DNA from: Nannocystis sp. RBIL2
GTDB lineage: Bacteria > Myxococcota_A > Polyangia > Nannocystales > Nannocystaceae
Length of the DNA: 64,000 nucleotides
Direction of reading: 5' to 3'
Assembly (NCBI RefSeq): GCF_026626745.1
Contig: NZ_JAPNJW010000002.1
Span: 1,254,151 to 1,318,150 of the forward strand
The translations under genes were made by a program, and so were the position numbers. Each line of letters starts with the position of its first letter. Position 1 is the stretch's first letter. The notes under the pieces were generated by a model that saw nothing but the letters and a program-made list of their open reading frames with translations, was not told the origin of the DNA and made no database searches. Below, piece by piece: positions 1 through 38,933 of this stretch.

Positions 1-421
1 GCGCCTTCTTGCCTGGCGCCGCGCCCGACGCGACCCAGTGCGCCGCCATCATCAGGCCGCCGGTGCCGCCGTAGCAGGCGTGCTTGGTCTCGAAGTTGCG
101 GCAGTTGGCGGTGAGCCCGCAGTAGCGCTGCACGTAGGTCGAGATCGGCTTGCCGAAGTCGACCGACGACTCGGTGCCGACGATCACGAGCTCGATGTCC
201 TGGCGGTCCTCGGGCCGGACGATCTGCAGCGCGGCGTTGACCGCCATCGTCACCGGATCTTCCCACGTCGGGTTGAGCGAGCGCTCGCTGACCCACAGCT
301 CCTCGAGCGGGTGGCGCGGGTCGTGGTCGCGCGCCTCCGCGAGCAGCTTCATGTCGAGCGAGAGCGTGCACGGGTACGCCGTGATCCGCTCGATGCCCAC
401 GCGCGGCCGGTGGTGCGCCAT
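1..421 (-). CDS. HMG-CoA synthase family protein (N-terminal part only; gene continues beyond window start)
   Basis: Reverse-complement translation from ATG at 421-419 gives MAHHRPRVGIERITAYPCTLSLDMKLLAEARDHDP...IVGTESSVDFGKPISTYVQRY...ACYGGTGGL, matching the conserved N-terminal and GTESxxD and CYGGTxxL motifs of the hydroxymethylglutaryl-CoA synthase family; not in ORF track because it runs off the edge. Confidence 0.7.
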   Translation of the reverse strand, partial: MAHHRPRVGIERITAYPCTLSLDMKLLAEARDHDPRHPLEELWVSERSLNPTWEDPVTMAVNAALQIVRPEDRQDIELVIVGTESSVDFGKPISTYVQRYCGLTANCRNFETKHACYGGTGGLMMAAHWVASGAAPGKKA

Positions 422-438
422 CGCCGTCCTCTCCCCTC

Positions 439-1182
439 TCAGTACGTCCAGTCGAGGCCGCCGGTGACCGGCACGACCTGACCGTTGATGAAGCTGCCGC
501 CCGTGGCCAGGAACAGGACCGTCGCCGCCAGCTCGGCCAGCGTGCCCATGCGCCCCTTCGGCATCGGGCAGTACTGCTGCCAGTAGTCCTTGGCCGCCTG
601 CGGCATGGTCTCGCGCGTCATGTCGGTGTCGAAGAAGCCCGGCACGACGACGTTGGCGGTGATGCCCTTGCGCCCGTACTCCTTGGCGAGCGCCTGGGTG
701 AAGCCGTGCAGGCCGGCCTTGCTGGCGGCGTAGTTGGCCTGGCCGGCCGCGCCGTTGTGCTGGATCGACGAGATGTTGACGATCCGCCCGAACCGCGCCG
801 CCAGCATCGCCGGCAGGAACGCGCGCACGACGTAGAACGGCCCGTGCAGGTTGGTGGCGAGCACGTCGTGCCACTCCTCGTCGGACATCGAGACCACGAG
901 GTTGGCGCGGTTGATGCCGGCGCAGTTGACGATCACCTCGACGCTGTCGAAGTCCTCGAGCACCGCGTCCGCGACCTCGCCGACGCGGTCGGAGCGGCTC
1001 ACGTCGAGCGCGTAGCCCTTGACCTTCGCGCCCGGGCGGATCGCCGCCGCCTCGGCCTCGATCTTGCGCGCCGCGTCGTCGTTGCTGCGGTACGCGAACG
1101 CGACGTCGTGGCCGGCGCGCACCGCCTCGAGCACGATGCCGGCGCCGATGCCCCGCGAGCCTCCGGTGACGAAGAAGTTCAT
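439..1182 (-). CDS. fabG: 3-oxoacyl-ACP reductase (short-chain dehydrogenase, FabG-like)
   Basis: ORF 439..1305 trimmed to internal ATG (MNFFVTGGSRGIGAGI Rossmann motif TGGSRGIG, NCAGI, YAASKAG active-site YxxxK); 8 nt after upstream KS gene. Confidence 0.8.
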   Translation of the reverse strand: MNFFVTGGSRGIGAGIVLEAVRAGHDVAFAYRSNDDAARKIEAEAAAIRPGAKVKGYALDVSRSDRVGEVADAVLEDFDSVEVIVNCAGINRANLVVSMSDEEWHDVLATNLHGPFYVVRAFLPAMLAARFGRIVNISSIQHNGAAGQANYAASKAGLHGFTQALAKEYGRKGITANVVVPGFFDTDMTRETMPQAAKDYWQQYCPMPKGRMGTLAELAATVLFLATGGSFINGQVVPVTGGLDWTY

Positions 1183-1190
1183 GGCGCGGC

Positions 1191-2501
1191 TCACAGGGTG
1201 TTCGGGTCCCACCGGCGGTACAGCGCGCAGCAATTGAGGCCGCCGAAGCCGAACGAGTTCTTGACCATCAGGTTGATGCGGTGCTCGACCGCCTTGTTGG
1301 CGCACACGTCGACGTCGACCTCGGGGTCGAGCTTGTCGATGTTGATCGACGGGTGCAGCACGCCGCCGCGCATCTGCAGCAGCGCAGCCACGGTCTCGAC
1401 CGCCGGCGCCGACCAGCAGGTGTGGCCGAGCATCGACTTCGGCGCGTTGATCTTGAGCCGCTTGGCGTGGTCACCGAAGACCTTGCGGATCGCGTTGAGC
1501 TCGGACAGGTCGCCGAGCGGCGTGCTGGTCGCGTGGGCGCAGACGAAATCGATCTCGTCGGGCCGCACCTGGGCGCGCCGCAGCAGCCGCTCGAGCGTGC
1601 GCGCCTGGCCCTCGGTCGACGGCGACGGCAGGTGGCAGCCGTCCGACGTCGAGGTGCAGCCGAGCACCTCGGCGTAGATCGTGGCGCCGCGCTTCAGCGC
1701 GTGGCCGAGCTCTTCGAGCACCAGCGCGCCGGCGCCGTGCGACGGCACGAAGCCCTCGCGCCGCGAGTCGTAGGGCCGGCTGGCCAGCTCGGGCGTGTCG
1801 TTGAAGCTCTCGAAGGTGATGGCGCCGAGCAGCGCCATCGCGTGCACGCCCATCTGCGAGAAGTCGAGCACCGCGCCGACCACCATCGCCATGTCGTGGT
1901 CGTGGTGGCGGATCTCGTCGATCGCGTTGCGCAGGGCCACGTTCGCGCTGGCGCACGCGCCCCCGAGCGTGTAGCAGGCGCCCTTCCAGCCGAGCATCTC
2001 GCTCACCGAGCCGGCGTGGTCGGTGTCGAGCATGTGCAGCGCCGCCATCGAGTCGATGTAGTCAGGGTCTTCCGTCTGGAAGGTGACGTAGTTGTCGGCG
2101 AAGTAGCGCTCGTTGAGGTTGTGGCCGCCGACCAGCACCGCGCAGCGGGTCGGGTCCGCGACCTCGACCATGCCGGCGTCGCGCCAGGCATCGGCCGCGC
2201 ACAGCACCGACAGCGACGTCGAGAACGGCGCCTTGTTGCACAGCTGGCGGGCCCGCTTGTGCACCTCGGCCGGCAGCACGTCGCGCAGACGCGCCAGCTT
2301 GGCCTTGACGTCGTACTCCGACAGATCGCCGCCGATCTTCGAGTACACGCCGTCGTTGTTGTGCCACTTCCAGCGCGAGATCGCCGACTTGCCGGCGACG
2401 AGGTTGGCGTAGAAGGTGTCGAGATCGTCGCCCAGCGGCGTGTTGATGCCGAGGCCGGTGACGACGACGCGGCGGGGCGATTGTGCCTGCGATGAGACCA
2501 T
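1191..2501 (-). CDS. beta-ketoacyl-ACP synthase (KAS I/II family, Cys-His-His triad present)
   Basis: 436-aa ORF; VVVTGLGINTPLG N-terminus, active-site GGACASAN cysteine, HATST and GHTCW histidine motifs typical of elongating FabB/FabF-type condensing enzymes. Confidence 0.85.
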   Translation of the reverse strand: MVSSQAQSPRRVVVTGLGINTPLGDDLDTFYANLVAGKSAISRWKWHNNDGVYSKIGGDLSEYDVKAKLARLRDVLPAEVHKRARQLCNKAPFSTSLSVLCAADAWRDAGMVEVADPTRCAVLVGGHNLNERYFADNYVTFQTEDPDYIDSMAALHMLDTDHAGSVSEMLGWKGACYTLGGACASANVALRNAIDEIRHHDHDMAMVVGAVLDFSQMGVHAMALLGAITFESFNDTPELASRPYDSRREGFVPSHGAGALVLEELGHALKRGATIYAEVLGCTSTSDGCHLPSPSTEGQARTLERLLRRAQVRPDEIDFVCAHATSTPLGDLSELNAIRKVFGDHAKRLKINAPKSMLGHTCWSAPAVETVAALLQMRGGVLHPSINIDKLDPEVDVDVCANKAVEHRINLMVKNSFGFGGLNCCALYRRWDPNTL

Positions 2502-2521
2502 GCGTGCTCTTCTGGGGGGAG

Positions 2522-3016
2522 TCAGTCCATCAAGTAGACCTCGAACACCGCGAGGGCCTGGACCTCCTCGCCGCGGAGGGCCTGGCCGACGCAGGTCGAG
2601 ACGTAGTCGCTGTGCTCGAGCGAGCGGGCGAGCAGCGTCAGCCGGTCACCCGGGCGGACGCCGCCCTGGAACAGGGCGTGGTGGACCTTGAGCAGCCGCA
2701 GGCGCGCGGGCGCGTCCGCGGCGTCGATGCTGGCTGTCCCTTTGGCCATGAGGTGCAAGAGACAGATCCCGAGCTGCCCGATCGCCTCGACCAGCAGCAC
2801 GCCCGGGTACACCGGGTCGCCGGGGAAGTGGCCGGCGAACACCGCGTCGCCGGCGTCGATGGTCCGCACGCCGCGGATCATGCCCGGGTCCTCGGGCGTG
2901 CGCGGCAGCTCGACCGCGTCGATCCCGTCGACGAACAGGAACGGATCGCGGTGCGGCAGCATGCGCTCGATCGCGGCGCGGCCGAACTCGACCCGCGTGC
3001 TGCCCTCTCCGGGCAC
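2522..3016 (-). CDS. FabA/FabZ-like hot-dog fold 3-hydroxyacyl-ACP dehydratase
   Basis: MLPHRDPFLFVD ... FAGHFPGDPVYPGVLLVEA motifs; start uncertain (ATG at 2962 gives core domain; GTG at 3016 or 3010 gives N-terminal extension comparable to E. coli FabZ); R-rich 5' part of ORF 2522..3205 judged noncoding. Confidence 0.65.
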   Translation of the reverse strand: MPGEGSTRVEFGRAAIERMLPHRDPFLFVDGIDAVELPRTPEDPGMIRGVRTIDAGDAVFAGHFPGDPVYPGVLLVEAIGQLGICLLHLMAKGTASIDAADAPARLRLLKVHHALFQGGVRPGDRLTLLARSLEHSDYVSTCVGQALRGEEVQALAVFEVYLMD

Positions 3017-3063
3017 GAACACGGGCCGCCGGCGGTGCTGCTTGATCAGCGCGTCGAGGCCGC

Positions 3064-4074
3064 TCAGCTCGTCCACGACGCCTCCTGAGCCACGTCCTTG
3101 CGCGGGGTCGGCGGCAGGTGCTGGCGCAGCGCCGCGAGCACGCCGGCCAGATGCCCGGCGGCGTCGTCGCGGTTGTCGGTGGCGTACTTCGGCCGCGACG
3201 ACCACTTACGGTCGAGCAGGTTGTGCAGCACCTGGCGCGGGCCGACCTCGATGAACACCGCGCCCGGGTGGCGCTCGGCGACGCGGTCGATCGACCGCCG
3301 CCACAGCACCGGCGTGTGCACGTGCTCCTCGAGCAGGTCGACGAATTCGGCGGCGGTCGGCGTCGGCACGAACTCGCCGCGGCGGTTCGGCAGGTACGGC
3401 AGCCGCGGGGCCTTGAAGCGCGCGCGCTGCAGGTGCGGGCGCAGGGCCGCGCCGACCGGCTCGAACAGCGACGAGTGCATCGGCACCTGGCGCTCGATGA
3501 TCGTCGGCACCACGTAGTGCTCGTCCTCCAGCAGCGCGACCGCGGCCTCGACCGCGGCGGCGTCGCCCGACAGCACGTGCTGCTTCGGCGAGTTGAGGTT
3601 GACGATCTCGAGCACTCCGAGGCCCTGGCCGCGGATCTGCTCGACCACCTCCTCGAGCGTCTCGAGGTCGAGCGGCTGGACCGAGGCCATCATCCCACGC
3701 GGGCCGGCGTCGTAGGCCTCGCCGCGGGCCTGGACCAGGCGCAGCGCCTCCGGCAGCTCGAGCGCGCCGATGTGGACGAGGTGGTTGTACTCGCCGAGCG
3801 ACAGCCCCAGCGACAGCTCGGCGTCGACGCCCTCGGCCTGCAGGATGCTGAGCATCATGTGGTTGGCGACGAACACGCCGACCTGGACGTCGACGTTGCG
3901 ATCGAACGCCGTCGGGTTGTCCTCGCTGGTGTGCGCGTCGAGGTCGCGGCCGAGCACGTCGTTGCAGCGCGCCAGCACCTCGGCGGCCCGGCGGTGCAGC
4001 CGGGCCAGCTTGCCGAGCATCCCCGGGTAGCGCGAGCTCTGCCCTGGGAACATGAACACCAGCGTCGTCTTCAT
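3064..4074 (-). CDS. malonyl-CoA:ACP transacylase family acyltransferase (FabD-like)
   Basis: MKTTLVFMFPGQSSRYPGM (GQGSQ-like oxyanion motif) and GLSLGEY nucleophile elbow (His of canonical GHSLG replaced by Leu); 336 aa. Confidence 0.8.
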   Translation of the reverse strand: MKTTLVFMFPGQSSRYPGMLGKLARLHRRAAEVLARCNDVLGRDLDAHTSEDNPTAFDRNVDVQVGVFVANHMMLSILQAEGVDAELSLGLSLGEYNHLVHIGALELPEALRLVQARGEAYDAGPRGMMASVQPLDLETLEEVVEQIRGQGLGVLEIVNLNSPKQHVLSGDAAAVEAAVALLEDEHYVVPTIIERQVPMHSSLFEPVGAALRPHLQRARFKAPRLPYLPNRRGEFVPTPTAAEFVDLLEEHVHTPVLWRRSIDRVAERHPGAVFIEVGPRQVLHNLLDRKWSSRPKYATDNRDDAAGHLAGVLAALRQHLPPTPRKDVAQEASWTS

Positions 4075-4096
4075 CGTGCCCCCTACCCTGTCCCGC

Positions 4097-5353
4097 TCAC
4101 TCGGCCGCCCCGTCGACGCGGCCGCGGATGATCGTGTCCTCGAGGATCTCGAGCGCGCGGTCGAGGTCGGCGCGCGTGTGCGCGGCCGTGATCGCGACGC
4201 GGAAGCGCAGCCCGTCCTCGGGCACCGAGGGGTAGTCGACCGGCGCGAGGAACAACCCGCGACGGTGGAGCGTGCGCGTCAACTCATACAGCCGGCGGCG
4301 ATCCGATCCGACCATGATCGGCACCACCTGACTCGAGCCGTGCCCGAGGTCGAGGCCGATCTGCTGCGCCTTCTCGCGGAAGTAGCGGGTGTTGGCCCAC
4401 AGCGTCTCGCGCAGCGAGTTGTCGCGGGTCGCCACCTCGAGCGCCTTGCGGAGCCCGGCCACCACCGCCGGCGGCAGCGCGCAGCTGAAGCCGTAGGCGT
4501 TGATGTAGTAGCGCATGTACTGCAGCAGCGCGCGCGGCCCGACGGTGAAGCCGCCGCAGCCGGCGAACGCCTTGCTGAAGGTCGCGAACTGCAGGCCGAT
4601 CGACTTCTCGGCCCCGTAGTGCTCGACCACGCCGCGGCCGTTGGCGCCGTACACGAGGATCGAGTGGGCCTCGTCGATCAGCACGCCCACGCCGTGCTTC
4701 TCGGCCACCGGCAGCAGCTTCGGCAGATCGGCGGTGTCGCCGTCCATCGAGTACACGCCCTCGACCACCACCAGCCGGCGCTGGCCCTCGCTGTCGGTCA
4801 ACGCCTGGTCGAGCGAGTCGGGGTCGTTGTGGTCGAAGAACACCAGCTTGGCGCGCGACAGCTTGGCGCCGTCGATCGAGCACAGGTGGGTCTTGGCGTC
4901 GAGGATCGCCACGTCGCCCTTGCGCAACACGCCGGCGAGCGTGCCCATTCCCCCGGCGAAGCCGCTGTTGAAGAGGATGCAGTCCTCTTGGCCGAGAAAC
5001 GCCGCCAGTTCCCGCTCGAGTCCGCGGTGCAGATCCGACAACCCCGACAGCAGCGGCGATCCGCAGGCCCCGGTGCCGTAGGTGCGCAGGGCCTCCTGCG
5101 CCGCCTCGACGACCTCCGGGTGCGTCGCTAGCCCGAGGTAGTTGTACGAGCTGAGGTTGATGACGTCGCTGCGTTCGCCGGCGCGTTCGATCGCCATGCG
5201 CGGTGCGACGGCCCCCAACATGTGGGGCTCGTACATCGACATCGCCCAGGAGCCAGCCTCGGCCCACTGCACGAAGCCCTCGGGCGGACAGAGCGGATCG
5301 TCGCTGTCCGAGAAGTAGAAGTCGGCCAAACTGTGCTCGGCTTCGCGGCCCAT
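4097..5353 (-). CDS. alpha-oxoamine synthase family PLP enzyme (serine palmitoyltransferase / 8-amino-7-oxononanoate synthase-like)
   Basis: INLSSYNYLGLA substrate-binding motif, SGFAGGMG, FSKAFAGCGG PLP-lysine motif; ATG at 5353 preferred over 5371 because of GGGAG 7 nt upstream; first gene of the minus-strand operon. Confidence 0.8.
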   Translation of the reverse strand: MGREAEHSLADFYFSDSDDPLCPPEGFVQWAEAGSWAMSMYEPHMLGAVAPRMAIERAGERSDVINLSSYNYLGLATHPEVVEAAQEALRTYGTGACGSPLLSGLSDLHRGLERELAAFLGQEDCILFNSGFAGGMGTLAGVLRKGDVAILDAKTHLCSIDGAKLSRAKLVFFDHNDPDSLDQALTDSEGQRRLVVVEGVYSMDGDTADLPKLLPVAEKHGVGVLIDEAHSILVYGANGRGVVEHYGAEKSIGLQFATFSKAFAGCGGFTVGPRALLQYMRYYINAYGFSCALPPAVVAGLRKALEVATRDNSLRETLWANTRYFREKAQQIGLDLGHGSSQVVPIMVGSDRRRLYELTRTLHRRGLFLAPVDYPSVPEDGLRFRVAITAAHTRADLDRALEILEDTIIRGRVDGAAE

Positions 5354-5371
5354 CACGGAACTCCCCGGCAT

Positions 5372-5798
5372 GTCGGGGCCCGGGCGTAGTTACAGCGAAA
5401 GTATCGCGGCTGTCACGGAAATTTTGTTCCTCAGCGCATGCGGATCCACGTGCAGCGCGCGCTGTCGCCTCGTTGCACATGTTGCAGATTGCGACGCGCT
5501 GGCCTTATCGGCGAACTATTTAAACCGGTGCATAAAATGATGCGCCTCGATACGGCCGCATGCGGCTGCTTCGGCCGCTGGTAGTTAATCTCGAGTGCAA
5601 CAATCTCCACGCCCTGCAGCGAACTCGACGGCCGAGTCGCGCTCGCGCTCGCGTGTGGACTGCGAAATGCGTCGCACACTGGCTGTATGTCACGCATGCT
5701 GCGGACAGGAGACCGCGATCGAAGCGTCGTGTGGTGAAGCTCTCGAGTCCTGTCACCGCCTTGACGTCGACGCATCACGGTAGGTAATCCCCCGCTTC
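5372..5798. promoter_or_regulatory. divergent intergenic region between the lipid operon and the epimerase-family gene; locally AT-richer (ctatttaaaccggtgcataaaatgatg)
   Basis: 427-bp gap between divergently transcribed CDSs; only short shadow ORFs; drop in GC at 5510-5545. Confidence 0.4.
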
Positions 5799-6893
5799 GT
5801 GCGCACGAAGGTCCTCGTCACCGGCGCGAACGGGTTCATCGGCAGTCACCTCGTCGATCGTCTGCTCGCGGGCGGCGACGCGGTGCGAGCGATGGTCCGC
5901 GCCAGCGCCAACCTCGACAACCTCGCCGACGCGCTCGCGCGGCCCGACGCGCAGCCCGAGCTCGTGCGCGCGTCGCTGTCCGACGTCGACGCGATGGCGG
6001 CCGCGTTCGACGGCGTCGACACCGTCTATCACGTGGCCGGCCTGACCGCCGCGTTCACCCGCGACGAGTTCGCGCGGGCCAACGCGGCCGGCGTCGCCAA
6101 CGTGCTCGCGGCGATCCGCCAGGCCCCGCGACGGCCGCGGCGGCTGGTCTACGTGTCGTCGTTGATGGCCGCCGGACCGTCGCACCCCGAGGTCGCGCGG
6201 CGCGAGCACCACGCCCCGCGCGTCGGCTTCACGCTCTACGGCGACAGCAAGCTCGACGGCGAGCGGCTGGTCTTCGCCGCCGCGCGCGCCGGCGACGTCG
6301 AGGCAGTGATCGTGCGTCCGCCCGCGGTCTACGGCCCGCGCGACCTCGACATGTTGCAGATGATCCGCTCGGCCAAGTTCGGGGTGATCGCCCAGCCCGG
6401 CCTGCGCCCCACGTGGATGTCCTTCATCCACGCCTTCGACCTCGTCGAGGGCATCGCCCGCGCCGGCGCTCGTGGCCGCCCGATCCCCCGCGACGGCGAG
6501 CACGTGCTCGCCGATCAAGGCAGCCCGTTCGACCATGTCCCCGAGGACATCTCGCACCCCGCCGGCGCCGGCATCTACTACTTGACCGACGGCCAGCGCA
6601 GCACCGTCGTCGAGTTCGGCCGGGCCGCCGCCGCCGCGCTCGGCCGGCGGGCGCTCGCGCTGCCGATGCCGCAGGCCGCGGTGTGGACCGTCGCCGGCAT
6701 CAACCACGCGATCGGCCGCCTGCGCGGCAAGGCCCCCGCGCTGACGCTCGACAAGGCCCGCGGCAGCATGGCGCCGGGCTGGTGGTGCGACGACAGCCGG
6801 GCCGTGCGCGAGCTCGAGTACGCCCCGCAGTGGCCGCTCGCGCGAGGGCTCGAGCACACCGTCGCGTGGGCCCGCTCCGTCGGTCGCCTGTGA
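5799..6893 (+). CDS. NAD-dependent epimerase/dehydratase family protein (extended SDR)
   Basis: VLVTGANGFIGSHLVDRLL glycine-rich NAD motif, YGDSK catalytic YxxxK; GTG start. Confidence 0.8.
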   Translation: MRTKVLVTGANGFIGSHLVDRLLAGGDAVRAMVRASANLDNLADALARPDAQPELVRASLSDVDAMAAAFDGVDTVYHVAGLTAAFTRDEFARANAAGVANVLAAIRQAPRRPRRLVYVSSLMAAGPSHPEVARREHHAPRVGFTLYGDSKLDGERLVFAAARAGDVEAVIVRPPAVYGPRDLDMLQMIRSAKFGVIAQPGLRPTWMSFIHAFDLVEGIARAGARGRPIPRDGEHVLADQGSPFDHVPEDISHPAGAGIYYLTDGQRSTVVEFGRAAAAALGRRALALPMPQAAVWTVAGINHAIGRLRGKAPALTLDKARGSMAPGWWCDDSRAVRELEYAPQWPLARGLEHTVAWARSVGRL

Positions 6894-8348: not shown

Positions 8349-8430
8349 GCATGTCTGCACGGACATGCCCGAAGAGACATGCTCTTCTCACCATGTTCTT
8401 CGCAACATGCCGCGAAGGACATGTCCGCTC
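8349..8430. repeat. tandem array (about 6 units, 13-15 bp period) of GRCATGYCC palindromic elements directly after the UGPase stop
   Basis: catgtctgcac ggacatgcccgaag agacatgctcttc tcaccatgttcttc gcaacatgccgcgaag gacatgtccgctc; read directly. Confidence 0.8.
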
Positions 8431-8866
8431 GCGTCCGCCGCCGCCCCGGAGACGTCCGCCGCGCCGCCCATCGCCGCGCACCGACGAGCGCCGGATAAGT
8501 CTCCAGGAGGTCCGAGCGATGGGCGGCCGGCCCCGGCCGTCCATCGCTCGGAGAGCCCTCCCCGCCCCACGCCCTTCCCGACACCGGAGCCCACGACCGG
8601 CGCTCGGGCCACCCACGAGGCTGGCCGTGCAGCGGTCGGGGACGCGGGTCGGCGCCCATCCGCAGCGAGATGCGCCCGACGAAGGAAGGTGCATCCGCGA
8701 GGACTGGGCGCCGGCCCGCGTCCCCGACCGCCCGCGAGGCGGCCTCGGCAGTTCGCGAACCAGACCCCGAAGCAACCGCAACGAACCCCCGAAGCAAGGC
8801 CGCCCGCCCGAGGTCGAGCGTCCCCAGGCTCCCCGCGAGCGCCGACGCTGCTATAAAGCGCGCCAC

Positions 8867-10456
8867 ATGGCCGACGCACTCGACCACTATCTCACCTGGC
8901 GCCTTTACCGTGCCGAACTCGACATCGAGCTCGACTTCGCCGACGCCCAGCTCGACGAGCCCGCGCTGACCGCCAGCGCCCCGCGCCTCGAGGCCGCGCT
9001 GGACGCCCTCCACCGGATCGAGGGCGGCGCCGTCGCCAACGCCGACGAGGGCCGCATGGTCGGGCACTACTGGCTGCGCGACCCGGAGCGCGCCCCCGAT
9101 CCCGCGATCACCCAGGCCATCCACGACAGCTGGCGGCAGATCGAAGCCTTCGCCGCCGGCGTGCGCGGCGGCCAGATCCTCGCCGACGACGGCCGGCCGT
9201 TCACCGGCGCCATCCTCGTCGGGATCGGCGGCAGCGCTCTCGGCCCGCTGCTGCTCGAGGCCGCCCTGACCGCGCGAGACAGCGGCCCCGGCTTCAGCCT
9301 GCGCGTCCTCGACAACACCGACCCCGCCGGCATCGCCGACCTGCTCGCAGAGACAGGTACGCTCGCGCAGACCTTGATCCTCGTCGTCTCCAAGTCGGGC
9401 TCCACCGTCGAGACGCGCAACGGCATGCTCGAGCTGCGGGCCGCCTGTGCCCGTCAGGCGATCGAGTTCCCCAAGCGGGCGATCGCCATCACCCTCGAGG
9501 GCAGCACGCTCGATCAGCTGGCGCAGCGCGAGGGCTGGCTGGCGCGCTTCCCGATGTGGGACTGGGTCGGCGGGCGCACCAGCGTGCTCTCGCCGGTCGG
9601 CCTGTTGCCGGCCGCCCTGCTCGGCCACGACTGGCGCGGCCTCCTGCGCGGCGCCGCGGCGATGGACCAGTGGGGTCGCGTGCGGCCGGCGCGGCGCAAC
9701 CCGGCCGCCCTGCTCGCCTGGCTGTGGCACCAGCAGGGCTCGGGACATGGCCTTCGGGACATGGTCATTTTGCCATATAAGGATCGCCTGTCGCTGCTGT
9801 CGCGCTACCTGCAGCAGCTCGTGATGGAGTCGCTCGGCAAGCGGCTCGACCGCCAGGGCCGCGAGGTGTGGCAGGGGCTCGCGGTCTACGGCAACAAGGG
9901 CTCGACCGACCAGCACGCCTACGTGCAGCAGCTGCGCGACGGCCTGCACAACTTCTTCGCGGTGTTCGTGCGGGTGCTCCGCGACCTCGACGGCCAGGTC
10001 ACCGGCCCGGGCATGGTCGAGGTCGAGCCGCAGGTCAGCTCGGGCGACTGCCTCGACGGCTTCTACCAGGGCACCCGCGCCGCGCTCGCCGAGCGCGGAC
10101 GGGCCAGCGCGACGATCGTCCTGCGCCAGGTCGACGCCGCCGCCGTCGGCGCCCTGATCGCGCTGTTCGAGCGCGCCGTCGGGATCTACGCCGAGCTCAT
10201 CGACGTCAACGCCTACCACCAACCGGGCGTCGAGGCCGGCAAGCAGGCCGCGCAGGGCGTGCTCACGCTGCAGGCCGCGGTGCTCGCCGCGCTCCCGGGC
10301 GGCTCCGGAGGCAAGACCGCGCGCGAGCTCGCCGAGTCGCTCGGCGCCGACCCCGTGGCCGTGTGGCAGGTGCTGCGCCACCTCGCCAGCAACGGCCGCG
10401 TGAGCGTCGACAGCCTCGTCGATCCGGCGGCTGCACAGTTCGCGCGCGCGACTTGA
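8867..10456 (+). CDS. pgi: glucose-6-phosphate isomerase
   Basis: ORF 8351..10456 trimmed to in-frame ATG at 8867 (MADALDHYLTWRLY...); ILVGIGGSALGP, VVSKSGST motifs of PGI; upstream part is R/P-rich and overlaps the repeat array. Confidence 0.85.
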   Translation: MADALDHYLTWRLYRAELDIELDFADAQLDEPALTASAPRLEAALDALHRIEGGAVANADEGRMVGHYWLRDPERAPDPAITQAIHDSWRQIEAFAAGVRGGQILADDGRPFTGAILVGIGGSALGPLLLEAALTARDSGPGFSLRVLDNTDPAGIADLLAETGTLAQTLILVVSKSGSTVETRNGMLELRAACARQAIEFPKRAIAITLEGSTLDQLAQREGWLARFPMWDWVGGRTSVLSPVGLLPAALLGHDWRGLLRGAAAMDQWGRVRPARRNPAALLAWLWHQQGSGHGLRDMVILPYKDRLSLLSRYLQQLVMESLGKRLDRQGREVWQGLAVYGNKGSTDQHAYVQQLRDGLHNFFAVFVRVLRDLDGQVTGPGMVEVEPQVSSGDCLDGFYQGTRAALAERGRASATIVLRQVDAAAVGALIALFERAVGIYAELIDVNAYHQPGVEAGKQAAQGVLTLQAAVLAALPGGSGGKTARELAESLGADPVAVWQVLRHLASNGRVSVDSLVDPAAAQFARAT

Positions 10457-16134: not shown

Positions 16135-16820
16135 GCACGCGGGTGTTCGTGGGCGCGCCGGCCGACCCGGCGCGTGTCGACCTGGACGCAGCCGAGTCGC
16201 ACTACCTCCGGCGGGTCCGCCGGGTCGGCGACGGCGCGCGCATCGAGGCGATCGACGACCACGGCGCCCTGTGGCTGGCCGAGGTCGTCGGCGGCGACGC
16301 GCGCGGCACCACCCTGAAGTTGCTCGAGCAACGAACGGTGCCGGCCCCCGCGCGCGAGGTCGTGGTCCTGCTCGGCATGCCCGAGCCGGCCACCGTGCTG
16401 GACGTGCTGCCGGCGCTGTGCGAGATCGGCGTCGCCGAGGTCGTGCTGGTCCGCTGCGCCCGCAGCCAGGGCGCGGCGCCCGGCGGCGAACGGATCGCGC
16501 GGGTGCTGCGAGCGGCGCAGCGTCAGTGCGGCAGGCCGCGCGCGCCTGCGATCTCGGGACCCGTCGATCTCCGCGAGGCCACGCACCGGCGCACCGACCT
16601 CCCCGGCTTGTTCGCGTGGGAGGAATTGCGCGCGACATCGAGCGACGCGCCGGCGGTCACGGCGGGTGCTCGTGTGTGCGTGGGGCCCGAAGGTGGGTTT
16701 ACCCCCGAGGAGGCGGCGCTGCTGCGCGCCGCGGGCTTCCGCGCGCTCGGCCTCGGGCCCTACACGCTGCGCACCGAGACGGCGGCGCTGGTCGCTGTCG
16801 CTCGCGTGATGTTCGCCTGA
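16131..16820 (+). CDS. rsmE: 16S rRNA (uracil1498-N3)-methyltransferase RsmE family
   Basis: MSTRVFVGAP...HYLRRVRRV...VLLGMPEPATVLDVLPALCEIGVAEVVLV...VCVGPEGGFTPEE, RsmE/SPOUT signatures. Confidence 0.8.
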   Translation: MSTRVFVGAPADPARVDLDAAESHYLRRVRRVGDGARIEAIDDHGALWLAEVVGGDARGTTLKLLEQRTVPAPAREVVVLLGMPEPATVLDVLPALCEIGVAEVVLVRCARSQGAAPGGERIARVLRAAQRQCGRPRAPAISGPVDLREATHRRTDLPGLFAWEELRATSSDAPAVTAGARVCVGPEGGFTPEEAALLRAAGFRALGLGPYTLRTETAALVAVARVMFA

Positions 16821-16874
16821 GCGCCGGCGGGGACCCGCCGCGCCGCGCGGGGACGGACCGGGAGGCCCGGGGCC

Positions 16875-17474
16875 GTGTTATGGTGCGCGCCGATGGCGTT
16901 TTGGTCCCGCAAGGAGCGACCCGCACCGTGTCCGAGCTGCGACGCGGCGCTGGACATCGGCCTCGTCAAGGACGGGCAACCGACGTGCCCGGCGTGCGGG
17001 CAAGCGCTGGTGCCGGTGCGCGTCGCCGGCTTCTGGCGTCGCCTCGCCGCCGCGGTGGTCGACGCCGCGATCCTGCTCGTCACCGCCGGGCCGCTGCATC
17101 TCGGGCTGCAGCGCGTGATCGGCGATGCCAGCCCGGTGCGCGGCGCCTTCTCGTGGGCCGGCCTGCTCCAGCTCTTGACCGTCGAGCCGCTCGAGATCCT
17201 GGTGTGGCTGGCGCCGCTCCTGGTGATGGTCGCGTTCTACTTCGTGCTCTTCATCGCCCTGTCCGGAAGGACACCCGGGCAGAAGCTCACCGGGATCCGC
17301 GTGGTCCACCGCGCCGGCGGCAAGGTCGGTCCGGTGCGCGCGACGGTGCGTTTCGCGGGCACCGCCGTCGGCCTGGTACCCGGCGGCCTCGGCTCGCTAT
17401 GGATGGCCTTCGACCGCGAGAAGCGGGCCTTCCACGACTACCTGACAGGCACCTACGTCGTGAGGGAACAGTGA
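16875..17474 (+). CDS. RDD family membrane protein with N-terminal zinc-ribbon (CPSC...CPAC)
   Basis: GTG 16875 with GGAGG 9 nt upstream (alt ATG 16893); RDD motif region RFAGTAVGLVPGGLGSLWMAFDREKRAFHDYLTGTYVV. Confidence 0.7.
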   Translation: MLWCAPMAFWSRKERPAPCPSCDAALDIGLVKDGQPTCPACGQALVPVRVAGFWRRLAAAVVDAAILLVTAGPLHLGLQRVIGDASPVRGAFSWAGLLQLLTVEPLEILVWLAPLLVMVAFYFVLFIALSGRTPGQKLTGIRVVHRAGGKVGPVRATVRFAGTAVGLVPGGLGSLWMAFDREKRAFHDYLTGTYVVREQ

Positions 17475-20400
17475 GCCTCCTCCTGCGCCACCTCGAAGCC
17501 AACGGCCCGCTCTCGCGCGCCGATCTCGAGGCCGCGACCCGGCGGCAGCAGCTGGCCGGCGGCAGCCTCGACACCGCGATCCTCGAGCTCGGGCTGATGA
17601 CCCCGCTGCAGCTCGACGCCCTGCTGCAGAGCGCCTGCGGCCTCCCCGGCGCGCCGGTGCGGCTGCTCGAGCGCGGGCCGACCCGTCCCTGGGAACATGT
17701 CCCGAGAGACCTGGTCGACATCGGCTGGGCCATGCCGCTCGCGCAGGAGGACGGCCGGCTGATCGTCGCCGTCCACCCCGACCTGCCCGACGCCAAGCTC
17801 GGCCAGCTCTACCGCATGGTCCGCGGCTTCTACCCGGTCGTCGCGCCCGAGTGCTGCCTGGCCAAGATCGCCGCCGAGCGCACCGGCTCGATCCTCGCCC
17901 CGCGCTACGCGCTGATCCTGCTCGACTACCTCGAGGCGCTGCGCACCGCCTCGATCACCATCAGCCTGATGCCGGGCGCCGCCGAGCCGCGTCCGAGCGA
18001 AGCGGCTGTCCCTGCGGACAGTCGGGCGGAAGACGCACCTGTCCCAACGGACAGGCAGACGACGGAGGTCCGCGCCGAGGCAGCTGTCCCTGGGGACAGG
18101 CCGACATCCGAGGCGCGCGAGGGGGCACCTGTCCCCGCGGACAGGCAACCGGCCGATGCCCGGGGCGCAGATGCAGCTGTCCCTGCGGACAGGTCGCACG
18201 CCGACGCGCGACCGGAGCCGTCCGGCGCAGACACGCCGGTCGACGCTCGCATCGCCGACGCGCCGAGCGCCGGCGATCGCCAGGCGACCAGCTCGGACCC
18301 GAGCCAGGGATCCGACACCCCGGCCCGTCGCACCGAGGCGCCCACCGCCACCCACGGGCTGGAGGTCGAGGCCGGAGGCCCTGCCCTCGATTCGTCGCGG
18401 ACCGGTGGGTCTGCGAGCGACCAGGTCGCCGCTGCTCATGTGGAAGCTCCTGTCCCTGCGGACAGGTCCGCCATCGACGCGAAGGTAGACGGCACCGAGG
18501 CCAGGCCTGCCGCCGCCCCGAGGGCCGACGCCGCGGACGCCACGCAGACCACCCCTGTCGCGGCGGACGGGACGACCGCGGGCGTGCGACCGGTGTCGCT
18601 GGCCGACGCGCTGCTGGCCGACGTACCTGTCCCCTCGGACAGGCAGATGGCCGGCCCGCGCCCGGCGGCGATGTCCGGGCCGAACACCGCGGCGCGCGCG
18701 ACGGGTTCGCCGTCCGGCGCGCCACCGCCGTCGGAGGCCGGCTCGCCGCGGACGGGCACGCCCGACGACGCCGCCGCGACGGCGCCTGTCCCCGGGGACA
18801 GGCCGGGCGACTCGCCCGCACCTGCCCTCAAGGACAGCCGCAACGAGGCGATTGACGCGGACCGAGCTCGCCCGGCGAACGGTTCGACGCTCACCGCGGG
18901 TTCCTCCCCCGCAGCGCCGACTCTCGCCGATTCGCCGACATCCGACTCCGACGCCCGCGCCCACGCGCCTCGCACCTCCGACGAGCTCGCCGCAGACCGT
19001 GCGGCCGCCGCGACCAGCAGTTCCGCGACGACCCCGGCCGCCACACCTGTCCCTCAGGACAGCCGGGCCGCAGCATCGACGCCGCCGAGCGTCAACGCCG
19101 CGCCCGCACCTGTCCCCGCGGACAGCTCCGCTTCAAACGCCTCGGCCCTGCCCTCCGGCCGCGAGCCCGCGCGTGACGCTGCACCTGTCTCTGAGACCAG
19201 GTCGCCCCAGCTCGACACCCCGAGCCACGCCGCTGCGGGGCGCCGGACCGAGACCGCCCCCACGCCTGCCGCCGCGGCGAGCCGCCAGACGGCGGCGTAC
19301 GACTCGCGGGCGCCCGAGCCCGACCCGGCACCCGCCGCCAATCGGCCGCCCTCGACGCGGCCCTCGCCCGTCCCCGTCGCCCCGGACGCCCCGCTCATCG
19401 ACCCCGGCGGCTTCGAGGACGAGAACGCCTCGCTGGCGGCGATGGCCATCGCCCCCGACACGCCGCTCATCATCCTGCCGCCGGCGACCACGCCGCGACC
19501 GGTGACCCCAGCCCTCGGGGTGCCGATCTATTCCGACACCTCGTCTGGCAATTGGGACAGGCGCACCCTCGTCGGCATCCCGGTAGGCGTGGCGCCCGCC
19601 CCCGCCCCCGCCCCCGACAAGCCCGCGGCCGCGCACGGCCCCAGCAACGGCGTCGCTCGCCCCACGGCCGCATCGAGTCCACCTGTCCCTTCGGCCAGCC
19701 CCGCCGAGCCCGCGCCGAGCCCGCCCGTCCCTTCGGCCAGCCCCGCCGAGCCCGCGCCGAGCCCGCCTGTCTCTTCGACCAGCTCCTCGGAGGCCGCGCC
19801 GAGCGCCCCCGAAGCCGCGTCTGACGAGGATCTGGTCGAGTCGTCGACGCGCAAGCCGCCGGCCCTGCCGCAGCCGATGGTCATGACTCTGGCGCAGCGC
19901 CTCGACGCCGCCCGCGCCACTCTGGCCACCGCGCGCGAGCGCGACCGGATCACCGAGGCCCTGGTGCGGGCCGCGAGCCTGATCGCCCCGCGCGTGGCCC
20001 TGTTCGGGGTCAAGCGCGAGGGTCTGCGCGTCCTGGCCGCGCCCGGCAGCGCGCTGCGGATGTCCGAGGGTCTCGTCATCCCGCTGCCCGAGGGCGGCCT
20101 GCTCGATCGCGCAGTGTCGGGCCAGGGTCCGCTGCACCTCCTGATCGAGCCGAGCCTGTCGTTCGCAGTCGGCCAGCCGCTGGGGATCCCCTGCATCTTC
20201 GAGCCCGTGCTCGCCGGCGGCCGCACCGTGCTGATGCTCTACCTCGACCGCTCCGGCGTCGCCTTCGATCCGCGCGAGCGGACCGTCCTGCGCGAGCTGT
20301 GCGACACGGCCCGGCAGAGCCTCGAGGCGCTGCTGCGGCTGCTCGGCTGGGTGGTGCCCGGCGGCACGCCCGGGGCCGGCCCCGCCGACCGCACGCGCCC

Positions 20401-22780
20401 GTCGATCCGGCCGGCGACCCCGATCGTCACCGTCGACGAGGCCGACGCGCCGGCCACGACGCCACCTGTCTCTGCGGACAGCTCCGAAACCGAGCCGCCG
20501 TCCGGCGAGACCTCGGCCGAACCCGACGATTCCGAGCCGCCGCCGACCGCGAGCGGGGCGGCGAGTGAACCTGGCTTCGGGGACAGCAACAGCCTCGCCA
20601 GCCGGCTGCGCAGCCGCGGCAACCGCGGGCGCGCCGTCATCACCCTGAAGAACCCGATCCGCCGCGACGACCCGGCGACCGTGACGCCGCTGCCGGTCCG
20701 CGCCGAGAGCTCCGCGCTCGTGCGGGCCCAGACGCTCGCCGACGAGCCGCCGCCCCCGCCCGTCGACGAGCCGGAGTACGAGGACCTCACCGACGACCCC
20801 GAGGAGCTCGACAGCCCGCCGCCGCGCCGTGACGGCCCCGGCCTCGGCCTCGCGCCGGTCCCGGTGCCTCTCGGCCCCGAGAACGGCCAGGACAGCCCGC
20901 TCGTGGCCCGCTTCGCCGCGATGTTCACCAAGCCGCCGCTGCCGGCGGTGACGATCGACCTGTCCGATCGGCCCAATACCTTCGGACATGCGCGATCGGA
21001 CAGCCCCGAGGCGCCGCCAGCGAGCCCGCAGCCGGAGATGCCGGGCTGGATCGCCACCGCCGAGCCGTCAGGCATCGAGGACCCGCTGCCCGTGGCCGCG
21101 GCGCTGCGCTCGGCCGCGACCGCCGCCGAGGCCCGCGTCGACCACGATCCGGCGGCGACGCTGCCGGGCGCGCCGCGGGTCATGCTCGAGGAGACCACGC
21201 GGGCATCGACGCGCGACGAGTTCGACGAGTGGCCGCGCGCCGCCTCCGACACCCCGACCATCCTCGACCTCTCGCCGCCGCCGACCCACGAGCCGCTGCT
21301 GGTCGAGACCCGCGCCGCGCCCGACGCCAAGACCGTCCTCGACCTCCCGCGGGTCGACTCCCCGGTCCCGCCCGAGACCCTGATCCCCAACCTCGTCGCC
21401 CCGCCCGGCACGCCCGGCGCGGGCCGCCGTCGCCGCGCGAACGAGGCGGCCGAGGACGAGCCGGTATTGGTGATCCCGAAGACGCTGCGGCGCTCGGGCG
21501 GCCTCACCGCCACGCCGCACCCGATGGCCCGTCGCAGCGACCCCGACGAGCTCGAGGGCGGTCCGACGCTGACGATGCCGACCACTCTGATCGGCCCGCG
21601 CAGCGGCCGGCGACGCGGCAAGCACGACCCGCGCCCTGACTCCTCGTCCAGCGCCCTGACCATGCCCCGGCTGGTACGCGAGGCGGAGGCCGACGACGCC
21701 GCGGCCCAGTCGACTGCGAATGGGATCGCTCCTTCGGAACATGCCCCTGAGGACATGTCCCCGGCGACCGGTTCCAAAGCGCAGGTCGACGCGAGCGCGT
21801 CGCCAGCCGGCGCCGCCGAGGCGAGCGGGTCCGTCGCGGCCCCGCCGGCCGACGAGCGCCCTGCGGCCGACGAGCTGTCGAGCGAGGAGCCGGCCGCGGC
21901 CGCCGACGCCGCCCCCGGCGCGGCGCTCGACGACCGCGAGATCGACGCGGTGATCGAGGGCTTTTTGCAGAACCCGGCCGAGTGGACCAGCGTGTCGCGG
22001 CTGCGCGCGCTCGACGAGCGCGGCCTGGCCCGCCTGGCGGCGCGCTTCCCGGGGCCCATCGACCTCGCCAACGCGACCAACTTCCCGCCGCCGAGCGCTC
22101 ACGGCCCGCTGCTGCGCGCGTGCGTCGAGCTCGGCCACGCGGTCAGCCCGCACGTGCTCGCCCTGTTCGCCAGCGCACGGCCGCAGATCCGCTTCTACGC
22201 CGCGTTCCTGTTCCAGGAGCTGCGCGACCCGAAGTGCCTGCGGCCGCTCGGCGAGCTGGCGTTCGACTCCGACCCCGACGTGCGGCTGATCGCCACCCGC
22301 GTGCTCGAGTCCTACAGCCGCGTGCCTGACTTCGCAACGGTGGCCGCGGAGATCCGCGGCGAGCTCGAGAGCTCGGACCGCGACCGCCAGCTGCTCGCCG
22401 TCGAGGCCGCCGGCACCCTGCGCGACACCCTCGCAGTGCCGCGTCTCATCGACTTGCTGGCGGTCCGCGACAAGCACGTCCGCGAGGCCGCGCTCGAGGC
22501 CCTGTGCTCGATCACCGCCAAGCACCACGGCTACCGCGCCCAGCGCTGGCGGGCCTGGTACGCCGAGCACGGCCAGGAGCCGCGCATCGAGTGGGTCATC
22601 GACGGCCTGCGCCACCGCGACGAGGCCGTGCGCCGCTGGGCCGCCGACGAGCTGGCGCGGATCACCGGCCAGCGGATCCCGTTCCCGGCGGAGGGCGACC
22701 GCCGCAGTCGCGAGCTGGCCCTGCGCGCCTGGCAAGCCTGGTGGGACAGCAACCGCGAGGACTTCACCGCCGGTAGCTGA
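17471..22780 (+). CDS. giant multidomain protein (1769 aa): MshEN/T2SSE_N-like N-terminal domain, disordered Pro/Ala/Asp repeat region, GAF-like segment, C-terminal HEAT repeats
   Basis: GTG at 17471 overlaps RDD stop (GTGA) with GAGGGA 4 nt upstream; N-term SLDTAILELGLMTPLQLDALLQ resembles MshEN/GspE-N motif; aa 170-770 low complexity with xxAPVPxDRxx repeats; ITEALVRAASLIAPRVALFGV...MLYLD GAF-like; C-term PRLIDLLAVRDKHVREAALEAL HEAT-type repeats; ORF 16271..22780 upstream portion judged noncoding (overlaps rsmE). Confidence 0.7.
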   Translation: MSLLLRHLEANGPLSRADLEAATRRQQLAGGSLDTAILELGLMTPLQLDALLQSACGLPGAPVRLLERGPTRPWEHVPRDLVDIGWAMPLAQEDGRLIVAVHPDLPDAKLGQLYRMVRGFYPVVAPECCLAKIAAERTGSILAPRYALILLDYLEALRTASITISLMPGAAEPRPSEAAVPADSRAEDAPVPTDRQTTEVRAEAAVPGDRPTSEAREGAPVPADRQPADARGADAAVPADRSHADARPEPSGADTPVDARIADAPSAGDRQATSSDPSQGSDTPARRTEAPTATHGLEVEAGGPALDSSRTGGSASDQVAAAHVEAPVPADRSAIDAKVDGTEARPAAAPRADAADATQTTPVAADGTTAGVRPVSLADALLADVPVPSDRQMAGPRPAAMSGPNTAARATGSPSGAPPPSEAGSPRTGTPDDAAATAPVPGDRPGDSPAPALKDSRNEAIDADRARPANGSTLTAGSSPAAPTLADSPTSDSDARAHAPRTSDELAADRAAAATSSSATTPAATPVPQDSRAAASTPPSVNAAPAPVPADSSASNASALPSGREPARDAAPVSETRSPQLDTPSHAAAGRRTETAPTPAAAASRQTAAYDSRAPEPDPAPAANRPPSTRPSPVPVAPDAPLIDPGGFEDENASLAAMAIAPDTPLIILPPATTPRPVTPALGVPIYSDTSSGNWDRRTLVGIPVGVAPAPAPAPDKPAAAHGPSNGVARPTAASSPPVPSASPAEPAPSPPVPSASPAEPAPSPPVSSTSSSEAAPSAPEAASDEDLVESSTRKPPALPQPMVMTLAQRLDAARATLATARERDRITEALVRAASLIAPRVALFGVKREGLRVLAAPGSALRMSEGLVIPLPEGGLLDRAVSGQGPLHLLIEPSLSFAVGQPLGIPCIFEPVLAGGRTVLMLYLDRSGVAFDPRERTVLRELCDTARQSLEALLRLLGWVVPGGTPGAGPADRTRPSIRPATPIVTVDEADAPATTPPVSADSSETEPPSGETSAEPDDSEPPPTASGAASEPGFGDSNSLASRLRSRGNRGRAVITLKNPIRRDDPATVTPLPVRAESSALVRAQTLADEPPPPPVDEPEYEDLTDDPEELDSPPPRRDGPGLGLAPVPVPLGPENGQDSPLVARFAAMFTKPPLPAVTIDLSDRPNTFGHARSDSPEAPPASPQPEMPGWIATAEPSGIEDPLPVAAALRSAATAAEARVDHDPAATLPGAPRVMLEETTRASTRDEFDEWPRAASDTPTILDLSPPPTHEPLLVETRAAPDAKTVLDLPRVDSPVPPETLIPNLVAPPGTPGAGRRRRANEAAEDEPVLVIPKTLRRSGGLTATPHPMARRSDPDELEGGPTLTMPTTLIGPRSGRRRGKHDPRPDSSSSALTMPRLVREAEADDAAAQSTANGIAPSEHAPEDMSPATGSKAQVDASASPAGAAEASGSVAAPPADERPAADELSSEEPAAAADAAPGAALDDREIDAVIEGFLQNPAEWTSVSRLRALDERGLARLAARFPGPIDLANATNFPPPSAHGPLLRACVELGHAVSPHVLALFASARPQIRFYAAFLFQELRDPKCLRPLGELAFDSDPDVRLIATRVLESYSRVPDFATVAAEIRGELESSDRDRQLLAVEAAGTLRDTLAVPRLIDLLAVRDKHVREAALEALCSITAKHHGYRAQRWRAWYAEHGQEPRIEWVIDGLRHRDEAVRRWAADELARITGQRIPFPAEGDRRSRELALRAWQAWWDSNREDFTAGS
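18006..19783. repeat. 14 or more in-frame copies of the CCTGTCC-N4-GGACAGG palindrome (first five as 39-47 bp tandem units) inside the giant ORF
   Basis: e.g. ctgtccctgcggacag 18006, cctgtcccaacggacagg 18038, ctgtccctggggacagg 18084, cctgtccccgcggacagg 18128, ctgtccctgcggacagg 18177, 18440, 18627, 18784, 19048, 19109, degenerate 19185, 19682, 19727, 19766; further copies 20464 and 21731. Confidence 0.85.
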
Positions 22781-33273: not shown

Positions 33274-33313
33274 GTGCGGCAGTCCTTGCGGTTGAAGATG
33301 GGAGCCATGGAGA

Positions 33314-34684: not shown

Positions 34685-34696
34685 GGCGTGAACCTT

Positions 34697-36180: not shown

Positions 36181-36181
36181 G

Positions 36182-37174: not shown

Positions 37175-37215
37175 GACGATCCTCGCGGGAGAGAACGATC
37201 GGGGCTAGCGCCCGA

Positions 37216-37662: not shown

Positions 37663-37688
37663 GGGTGGTCTCTCCTGAGGTACTCGGG

Positions 37689-38927: not shown

Positions 38928-38933
38928 GCTTCG

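Follow-up and report, generated by a model that had tools for sequence, protein, structure and literature searches.

The described systems that come closest to the locus presented here are the ceramide pathway of Caulobacter and Sphingomonas, reportedly the subject of work by Olea-Ozuna in 2021 and Stankeviciute in 2022, the HMG synthase (HMGS; HMG, 3-hydroxy-3-methylglutaryl) cassettes of polyketide synthases (PKS), the alternative isovaleryl-CoA route of Myxococcus xanthus and the housekeeping type II fatty acid synthase (FAS). The locus lies at the beginning of a stretch of 64,000 nucleotides from Nannocystis sp. RBIL2 (contig NZ_JAPNJW010000002.1, positions 1,254,151 to 1,318,150; ~70% G+C), hereafter the window, and is a minus-strand operon headed by an alpha-oxoamine synthase (AOS) resembling serine palmitoyltransferase (Spt). 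Bacterial ceramide synthesis is built on a triad of Spt, N-acyltransferase and reductase, and the genes known from Caulobacter and Sphingomonas are Spt, AcpR, AasR, bCerS and CerR (PMC11324152; PMC11334938). The HMGS cassettes are exemplified by AcpK/PksC/PksF/PksG/PksH/PksI of Bacillus subtilis and by CurB-CurF of the curacin pathway. Conversion through the HMG, methylglutaconyl and methylcrotonyl intermediates has reportedly been obtained in vitro for PksG/H/I and CurD/E/F. The M. xanthus route to isovaleryl-CoA involves MvaS, LiuC, AibA/AibB and AibC.

Comparison of the window with related contigs showed that it holds the promoter-proximal half of an 11-gene operon, AOS-AT-DH-KS-KR-HMGS-ECH1-ECH2-ER-ER-ACP (AT, acyltransferase; DH, dehydratase; KS, ketosynthase; KR, ketoreductase; ECH, enoyl-CoA hydratase family; ER, enoyl reductase; ACP, acyl carrier protein). 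We propose, with a probability of roughly 55%, that this operon would be a self-contained, ACP-bound line for the production of a methyl-branched acyl-ACP, which AOS would condense with an amino acid into a sphingolipid-type backbone. Family calls were based on Pfam and NCBIfam profiles and judged against curated equivalog cut-offs (Table 1). Contigs of relatives were gathered via AOS homologs and included N. pusilla, N. radixulma, Plesiocystis pacifica SIR-1 and several metagenomic Nannocystaceae. For the negative statements on neighboring genes in relatives, 10 kb on either side of the operon were covered in five annotated relatives.

The profile matches bore out the gene order from AOS to HMGS given in an earlier note on this DNA, made from the sequence alone, and the successive spacings of 22, -13 (an overlap of AT and DH), 20, 8 and 17 nt are consistent with one transcription unit. 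The true start of AOS was set at the ATG at position 5353 (MGREAEH...) rather than at 5371, because the intervening 18 nt are not conserved, homologs begin at the former position and the nearest database proteins measure 418 aa; the start of DH was picked by comparison with contig L004 (12283-12822). That note had also reported the lack of an ACP gene. This absence proved to be apparent only, because the window edge cuts the operon: in N. pusilla Na p29 (contig L006) and in all complete relatives, HMGS is followed by ECH1, ECH2, two short-chain dehydrogenases/reductases (SDRs) and an ACP of 89 residues, which closes the operon ~4.3 kb beyond window position 1. The first 12 kb of the window share ~97% DNA identity with the N. 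pusilla contig, in which window position 1 corresponds to L006 15359. When compared with the intact genes of the window, KS/KR, ECH2, the second ER, ACP and the divergent SDR of this contig are frameshifted (L006 12864-14924, 17040-17816, 18640-19512 and ~9227-9230), probably through errors of long-read assembly. The contig also carries, ~0.6 kb downstream of ACP and on the opposite strand, a 244-aa minus-strand open reading frame (L006 20393-21127) resembling, by eye only, a DDE/IS630-like transposase.

Taken as a whole, the complete operon encodes every type II FAS activity, through AT, KS, KR, DH, ER and ACP, and the catalytic motifs are in place (GLSLGE, ARG and VPMHS in the case of AT). 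Both SDRs preceding ACP display the Y-x6-K spacing of the FabI/FabL enoyl reductases and match the NCBIfam FabL/FabI models; in Plesiocystis they are fused into a single protein of 570 residues (L087 18109-19821 in P. pacifica). The set thus resembles the housekeeping type II FAS (FabD, FabF, FabG, FabZ, FabI/L, AcpP) in having a homolog with intact motifs for each activity. It differs from it by the absence of FabH, by the union with AOS and an HMGS cassette in one operon and by the absence of any acyltransferase or thioesterase outlet besides AOS. No FAS-type protein reached the equivalog cut-off set for the corresponding housekeeping family, which indicates a paralogous, dedicated set, and since no thioesterase was found in the operon, AOS would be the sole release step.

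The earlier note had connected HMGS with beta-branching or with the supply of an iso-primer, and our data were in agreement with this view: an ECH1/ECH2 pair, located outside the window, directly follows HMGS in the relatives, and the operon HMGS is, by its sequence affinities, of the ACP-dependent polyketide type. The fragment present in the window shows the catalytic Glu (GTES) and Cys (HACYGG), and HMGS matches TIGR01835, the model of prokaryotic HMG-CoA synthases. When the full-length protein from L004, a locus whose AOS is 90% identical to that of the window, was compared with solved structures, CurD came first (267 bits), followed by PksG (225), M. xanthus-type MvaS (213) and Staphylococcus aureus MvaS (178). 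ECH2 passed the PksI-type NCBIfam model PRK07110 (278 versus a cut-off of 215), and its best solved matches were PksI (157 bits) and the ECH2 of CurF (148 bits), with generic crotonases at 93 bits or less. The remaining affinities lay below cut-offs: the best NCBIfam matches of ECH1 included PRK07112 (103 versus 250), the best model for ACP was PRK07117 (59.9 versus 79 bits), and PRK07103 was the top or near-top NCBIfam match of KS. These three are the models of PksH, AcpK and PksF, respectively. The KS retains the Cys-His-His triad, its ACAS, HATST and GHT motifs aligning with FabF, so that condensation is possible.

All six component types of the polyketide cassettes are consequently represented, including a FabD-like AT. 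Unlike these cassettes, the operon has no modular PKS partner (none lies within 10 kb of it in the annotated relatives), its KS keeps the catalytic Cys, a single ACP without Trp flag has to be donor and acceptor at once, and the cassette sits inside a full reductive FAS set that ends in AOS. An assignment as accessory cassette of a trans-AT PKS was rejected, as no megasynthase was found within 10 kb. With the MvaS-Aib route of M. xanthus, also a myxobacterial system, the operon would share the sequence from acetoacetyl and acetyl units through an HMG-thioester, 3-methylglutaconyl and dimethylacrylyl to isovaleryl, that is, a leucine-independent iso-primer. In contrast to that route, the intermediates would be bound to ACP and not to CoA, ECH2 has a crotonase fold and is no CoA-transferase-like decarboxylase of the AibA/B type, the reductases are SDRs with Y-x6-K spacing, and HMGS scores higher against CurD/PksG than against M. 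xanthus-type MvaS. This CurD/PksG affinity led to rejection of a mevalonate/MvaS identity for HMGS, and no separate mevalonate operon was found around it.

AOS belongs to the alpha-oxoamine synthase superfamily of fold type I pyridoxal phosphate (PLP) enzymes: it matches PF00155 (Aminotran_1_2) with E = 1e-48, and His162, Asp233, His236, Lys267 and Arg389/391, invariant in 15 members of its clade, align with Spt of Sphingobacterium multivorum. Within this superfamily, it is equidistant from the solved structures of Thermus AONS/KBL, Sphingobacterium Spt and Escherichia coli Kbl, and it is 36% identical to a canonical Spt from Myxococcaceae. The SYNYLG motif, which had been read as a sign of Spt, is indeed present but turned out not to be diagnostic; the loop reads GSPLLSG where the two canonical Spts compared have GSRxLNG. 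The clade was defined on 85 loci, comprising the best 80 from a scan of a genome collection and others from protein look-up; the signature G(S/A)PxLSG plus FSC occurs in all of them, the window AOS having GSPLLSG and FSCALPP. Of the two canonical Spts compared, from S. multivorum and from a Myxococcaceae locus (L089, GSRLLNG), both have GSRxLNG, and FSASMTP was read in L089 only. Clade members were found in Myxococcota, Verrucomicrobiota, Spirochaetota, Gemmatimonadota, Acidobacteriota and others. In Plesiocystis pacifica (L087 10001-11560) and Pseudenhygromyxa, in both of which the two ERs are fused, AOS carries ~100 extra C-terminal residues not seen in Nannocystis.

The genomic surroundings of this clade speak for a sphingolipid-type function, judging from the N-acyltransferase, CDP-alcohol phosphotransferase and lipid kinase genes found next to its members. 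In Plesiocystis and a related metagenome-assembled genome (MAG; L008), a unit of two genes, one for a 408-residue N-acyltransferase with a GNAT domain and one for the ortholog of the window SDR, lies divergent to the AOS operon. An AlphaFold model of the acyltransferase (pLDDT 88) shows a tandem-GNAT fold, a generic resemblance only. Homologs of this protein occur 1-7 kb from the AOS gene in ~30 Verrucomicrobia loci, and adjacent to it in two spirochaete loci and one from Bradymonadaceae. In one Verrucomicrobiae MAG (L017 7622-14544), AOS is accompanied by GNAT, two PIP-synthase-like CDP-alcohol phosphotransferases, an LpxO-like Asp/Asn beta-hydroxylase and a Kdo transferase, and thus looks like a candidate inositol-phospho-sphingolipid locus of Chthoniobacterales / Udaeobacter; this complete neighborhood was read in L017 alone, GNAT being the gene followed across the ~30 loci. 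More distant members of the clade, from Gemmatimonadota (42-43% identity), have a DAGK_cat/YegS-type lipid kinase after them (L076 11941-12954, L072 11850-12857), and a PlsC-type acyltransferase precedes AOS in L072. The same GNAT also lies directly downstream of the canonical GSRLLNG-type Spt in a Myxococcaceae genome, and ceramides have been reported from M. xanthus. On Nannocystis-type contigs (L088 10001-13338, L090 8001-11370), GNAT shares its operon with another ACP and with an AMP-binding enzyme resembling acyl-ACP synthetases, an arrangement that suggests delivery of the amide-linked chain from a separate ACP in Nannocystis.

The divergent SDR is syntenic in all Nannocystaceae loci, and that of the window is 57% identical to its Plesiocystis ortholog. 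Its predicted role in keto reduction, already put forward in the earlier note, gains from the co-transcription of this ortholog with the tandem-GNAT acyltransferase, and the epimerase-family SDR is a candidate CerR-like 3-keto reductase. NCBIfam had no bCerS or CerR model matching the GNAT and SDR proteins, and a PDB sequence search returned no bCerS or CerR relative. The resemblance to the Caulobacter/Sphingomonas ceramide pathway comprises a PLP-dependent AOS with a dedicated ACP, an adjoining epimerase-family SDR, a GNAT-type N-acyltransferase linked in relatives and a pair of ACP and acyl-ACP-synthetase-like enzyme in the same genome. The differences are that the acyl-ACP would be built de novo by the operon (AT, KS, KR, DH, ER plus cassette) instead of from an activated free fatty acid, that the Nannocystis ACP/synthetase pair sits with GNAT and not with AOS, and that AOS has GSPLLSG and FSC against GSRLLNG and FSAS of the myxobacterial Spt and stays below the Spt cut-offs.

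More than 15 independent loci, belonging to Myxococcota, Spirochaetota and one Candidatus Eisenbacteria MAG, share the gene order of the operon, which is far beyond chance. Each Nannocystaceae locus retrieved, whether from a genome or from a MAG, contained the operon, which thus behaves like core genes and not like strain-specific ones. In spirochaetes, a tandem-GNAT acyltransferase comes first and is followed by the set AT-KS-KR-HMGS-ECH1-ECH2-ER-ACP-AOS-DH. A Bradymonadales MAG (L050 4574-11760) encodes a tri-domain FAAL-ACP-KS protein of 1152 aa (FAAL, fatty acyl-AMP ligase), KR, ER, ACP, AOS and DH, without AT, HMGS or ECH genes, and would reach an AOS of the same clade by way of a loader followed by extension. 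The presence of a FAAL loader in one version and of AT plus HMGS cassette in another suggests that the cassette belongs to chain initiation. In one metagenomic relative (L086), an ACPS-family phosphopantetheinyl transferase (9137-9736) replaces the SDR divergent from the AOS operon, and an extra SDR (19583-20434) follows ACP.

From what was observed, namely the genes present, their order and conservation, their catalytic motifs and their family affinities, a pathway can be proposed whose chemical steps, chain length and amino acid are all predictions. The FabD-like AT would load malonate onto the AcpK-like ACP of the operon, and KS would decarboxylate and condense to give acetoacetyl-ACP. HMGS would then add acetate (HMG-ACP), ECH1 would dehydrate the product to 3-methylglutaconyl-ACP and ECH2 would decarboxylate it, most simply to 3-methylcrotonyl-ACP, which the FabI/FabL-like ER pair could reduce to isovaleryl-ACP. 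Elongation of this iso-primer by KS, KR, DH and ER would lead to a long iso-branched acyl-ACP. The Spt-like AOS would free the chain by joining it to an amino acid, probably L-serine, in a Claisen condensation that yields a branched 3-keto long-chain base; the divergent epimerase-family SDR would reduce the ketone, and the tandem-GNAT N-acyltransferase, encoded elsewhere in Nannocystis, would add the amide chain. The branched amino-lipid or sphingoid-base pathway suggested in the earlier note has thus gained a polyketide-type cassette and a GNAT linkage in ~30 Verrucomicrobia plus spirochaete loci, its substrate, chain length and branch position being predictions. As to the last, an iso-terminal branch and a mid-chain branch have about even odds; the cassette as initiation part favors branching at the acetoacetyl stage.

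Several observations weigh against this proposal. The nominal best match of AOS was the bioF model TIGR00858 (331 versus a cut-off of 426), and the scores against Spt models were far below their cut-offs, with 299 versus 640 for the CFB-type, 290 versus 500 for the beta-proteobacterial and 232 versus 670 for the alpha-proteobacterial model. The loop moreover lacks the Arg and Asn of GSRxLNG. Curated scores and loop motif together place AOS outside the characterised Spt family to which it had initially been likened, and its amino-acid substrate could be other than serine. As regards the cassette, the Cys of GGACASA and both His are found in the KS of the window and of four relatives, instead of the Cys-to-Ser exchange of a decarboxylating KS, and no Trp flag follows the Ser of GANSLD in the only ACP (GANSLDIVEV). 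This flag is said to have been described as a mark of beta-branching acceptor ACPs by Haines and colleagues in 2013. With neither a Cys-to-Ser decarboxylating KS nor a Trp flag on ACP, the acetyl donor is unaccounted for, and the pairing of a dedicated AcpK-type donor ACP with a Trp-flagged acceptor on a modular PKS was not found either. The branch could equally be introduced onto a longer beta-ketoacyl-ACP. In an alphaproteobacterial-labelled MAG (L015), an orthologous KS (60% identity), KR and both ERs lie near AOS without any HMGS cassette, so that the ER pair is not tied to the branch. A second ER dedicated to the beta-methyl enoyl intermediate was rejected in view of this locus and of the fusion of the two ERs in Plesiocystis. 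Finally, no GNAT homolog was found in the 64-kb window.

Alternatively, the operon could make a small diffusible amino-ketone or amino-alcohol, a signal or volatile of the CAI-1/alpha-hydroxyketone or pyrazine-precursor type, AOS joining a short beta-branched acyl-ACP such as isovaleryl- or 3-methylcrotonyl-ACP to glycine or alanine. The cassette by itself would lead to an isoprenyl-type C5 acyl-ACP, signals are made by enzymes of the AOS type, CqsA among them, the AOS loop is unlike that of the two canonical Spts compared, and within the window the operon has neither head-group nor acyltransferase genes at its side. We nevertheless consider a signal of this kind unlikely: CqsA gave the lowest score of the AOS family models (199 versus a cut-off of 428), a C5 product would not call for KR, DH and ER, and the operon is core-like, being found at every Nannocystaceae locus retrieved. 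The clade is, moreover, linked to tandem-GNAT, CDP-alcohol phosphotransferases, lipid kinases and a FAAL loader, which are membrane-lipid contexts. These contexts, together with the conservation of gene order across three phyla, also speak against a polyketide-like secondary metabolite unrelated to membrane sphingolipids, in which a discrete type II PKS with beta-branching would deliver an unsaturated or partly reduced, amine-capped chain. Such a product could be expected from the best affinities of KS, ACP, HMGS and ECH2, which are to proteins of trans-AT PKS cassettes, from the weak ApeI-like matches of DH and from the match of KR to a flexirubin reductase model. It appears improbable, however, as the full KR/DH/ER set predicts a saturated chain and as no modular PKS, chain-length factor, cyclase, tailoring oxygenase or exporter was found in the operon or within 10 kb on either side.

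A fortuitous clustering of BioF or Kbl with the MvaS of a mevalonate or isovaleryl-CoA route could explain why bioF, followed by Kbl-related models, heads the NCBIfam scores of AOS and why HMGS matches TIGR01835. These scores are nevertheless all below curated cut-offs (302 versus 460 for Kbl), and the annotated loci contain no bioA/B/D, no tdh and none of HMG-CoA reductase, mevalonate kinase, LiuC, AibA/B and AibC, so that the biotin context which would have explained AOS otherwise is missing. Considering also that the genes are translationally coupled or 8-22 nt apart, that HMGS is nearer to CurD/PksG than to MvaS and that the gene order is conserved across phyla, this explanation is largely refuted and seems extremely improbable. 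BioF, Kbl, ALAS and CqsA were each rejected as identities of AOS on the basis of curated scores and absent partner genes. The ACP-bound branched line ending in a sphingolipid-type condensation thus remains the reading we prefer.

The operon and the SDR are separated by a divergent intergenic region of 445 nt. A block of 37 nt within it, TTTCCGTGACAGCCGCGATACTTTCGCTGTAACTACG (minus-strand sense), is nearly invariant among loci where AOS is only 80-90% identical and the other intergenic DNA has diverged; judging from this conservation, it is probably a promoter or operator of the operon. Two more blocks (5512-5527 and 5582-5607) are conserved within Nannocystis, and the three blocks may act as promoter or operators for the divergent pair of AOS operon and SDR. 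A scan of the region for sigma-70 promoters and terminators found nothing, and a search for riboswitches and known RNAs gave no Rfam match at E <= 1 for the 445-nt leader.

Table 1. Features of the AOS operon and its divergent neighbor (positions in the window)
Feature	Positions	Strand	Supporting match or basis
AOS, alpha-oxoamine synthase, Spt-like, 418 aa, first operon gene	4097-5353	-	PF00155
AT, FabD-like malonyl-CoA:ACP acyltransferase, 336 aa	3064-4074	-	PF00698; TIGR00128 fabD 149 bits, below cut-off
DH, FabZ/ApeI-like 3-hydroxyacyl-ACP dehydratase, ~184 aa	2522-3076	-	PF07977 and FabZ models
KS, KAS I/II-type ketosynthase, PksF-related family, 436 aa	1191-2501	-	PRK07103 358.6 bits versus fabF 327.6
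KR, FabG-like 3-ketoacyl-ACP reductase, 247 aa	439-1182	-	TIGR01830 239 bits; adh_short and KR domains
HMGS, N-terminal 140 of ~415 codons, runs off window start	2-421	-	PF01154 and TIGR01835
Extended SDR, NAD-dependent epimerase/dehydratase family, 364 aa, divergent	5799-6893	+	PF01370
37-nt conserved element, 32-68 nt upstream of AOS start; probable promoter or operator	5385-5421	-	Alignment across Nannocystaceae loci

Beyond the SDR, the plus strand of the window encodes a eukaryote-type UTP-sugar-1-phosphate uridylyltransferase (PF01704; 7198-8322) and, next to it, a glucose-6-phosphate isomerase (8351-10456). The uridylyltransferase is syntenic with the SDR in every Nannocystis-type locus reaching that far (L001-L004, L006, L007); it could be a source of UDP-sugar for a glycosylated lipid, or be unrelated. 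A type II secretion/pilus-like set (PilM-like protein, T2SS-K, GspE ATPase, secretin) and a 2169-aa open reading frame with a weak HEAT-repeat match only (31519-45716, minus strand; 16271-22780, plus strand) appear unrelated to the AOS operon.

Full-text literature searches found no paper joining Spt or another AOS to an HMGS cassette and none on sphingolipid genes of Nannocystaceae, and a 2025 survey of conserved biosynthetic gene clusters of Myxococcota made no mention of HMG, ceramide or oxoamine. The statement of the earlier note that the locus matches no described cluster thus stood: its components are all of known kinds, and their combination, as well as the AOS clade, appear undescribed. 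A more far-reaching version of our proposal, in which the operon would represent the first polyketide HMGS cassette in primary membrane-lipid synthesis, is doubtful. One KS/ACP pair would then alternate between reductive and beta-branching cycles and, with malonyl-CoA as the sole source, produce an isoprenoid-like chain with several methyl branches, or at least a chain that is iso-terminal, and the GSPxLSG clade of AOS would form new branched sphingoid bases, possibly from an amino acid other than serine.

Bacterial sphingolipid synthesis is now described as the action of Spt on acyl-CoA, or on acyl-ACP made from free fatty acid. The operon predicts a third supply route, in which a private de novo FAS would hard-wire a methyl branch by reactions that have until now been described for polyketide antibiotics and toxins only. 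If this holds true, beta-branching cassettes would extend from secondary into core lipid metabolism, and attention would be drawn to a large clade of AOS proteins whose active-site loop is altered and which the current Spt models miss. The operon would also provide a genetic marker for branched sphingoid lipids, of use in environmental lipidomics and for MAGs of Myxococcota and Spirochaetota. For the organisms themselves, it would explain branched long-chain bases formed independently of leucine catabolism in myxobacteria of the Nannocystis group. This group is rich in straight-chain fatty acids.

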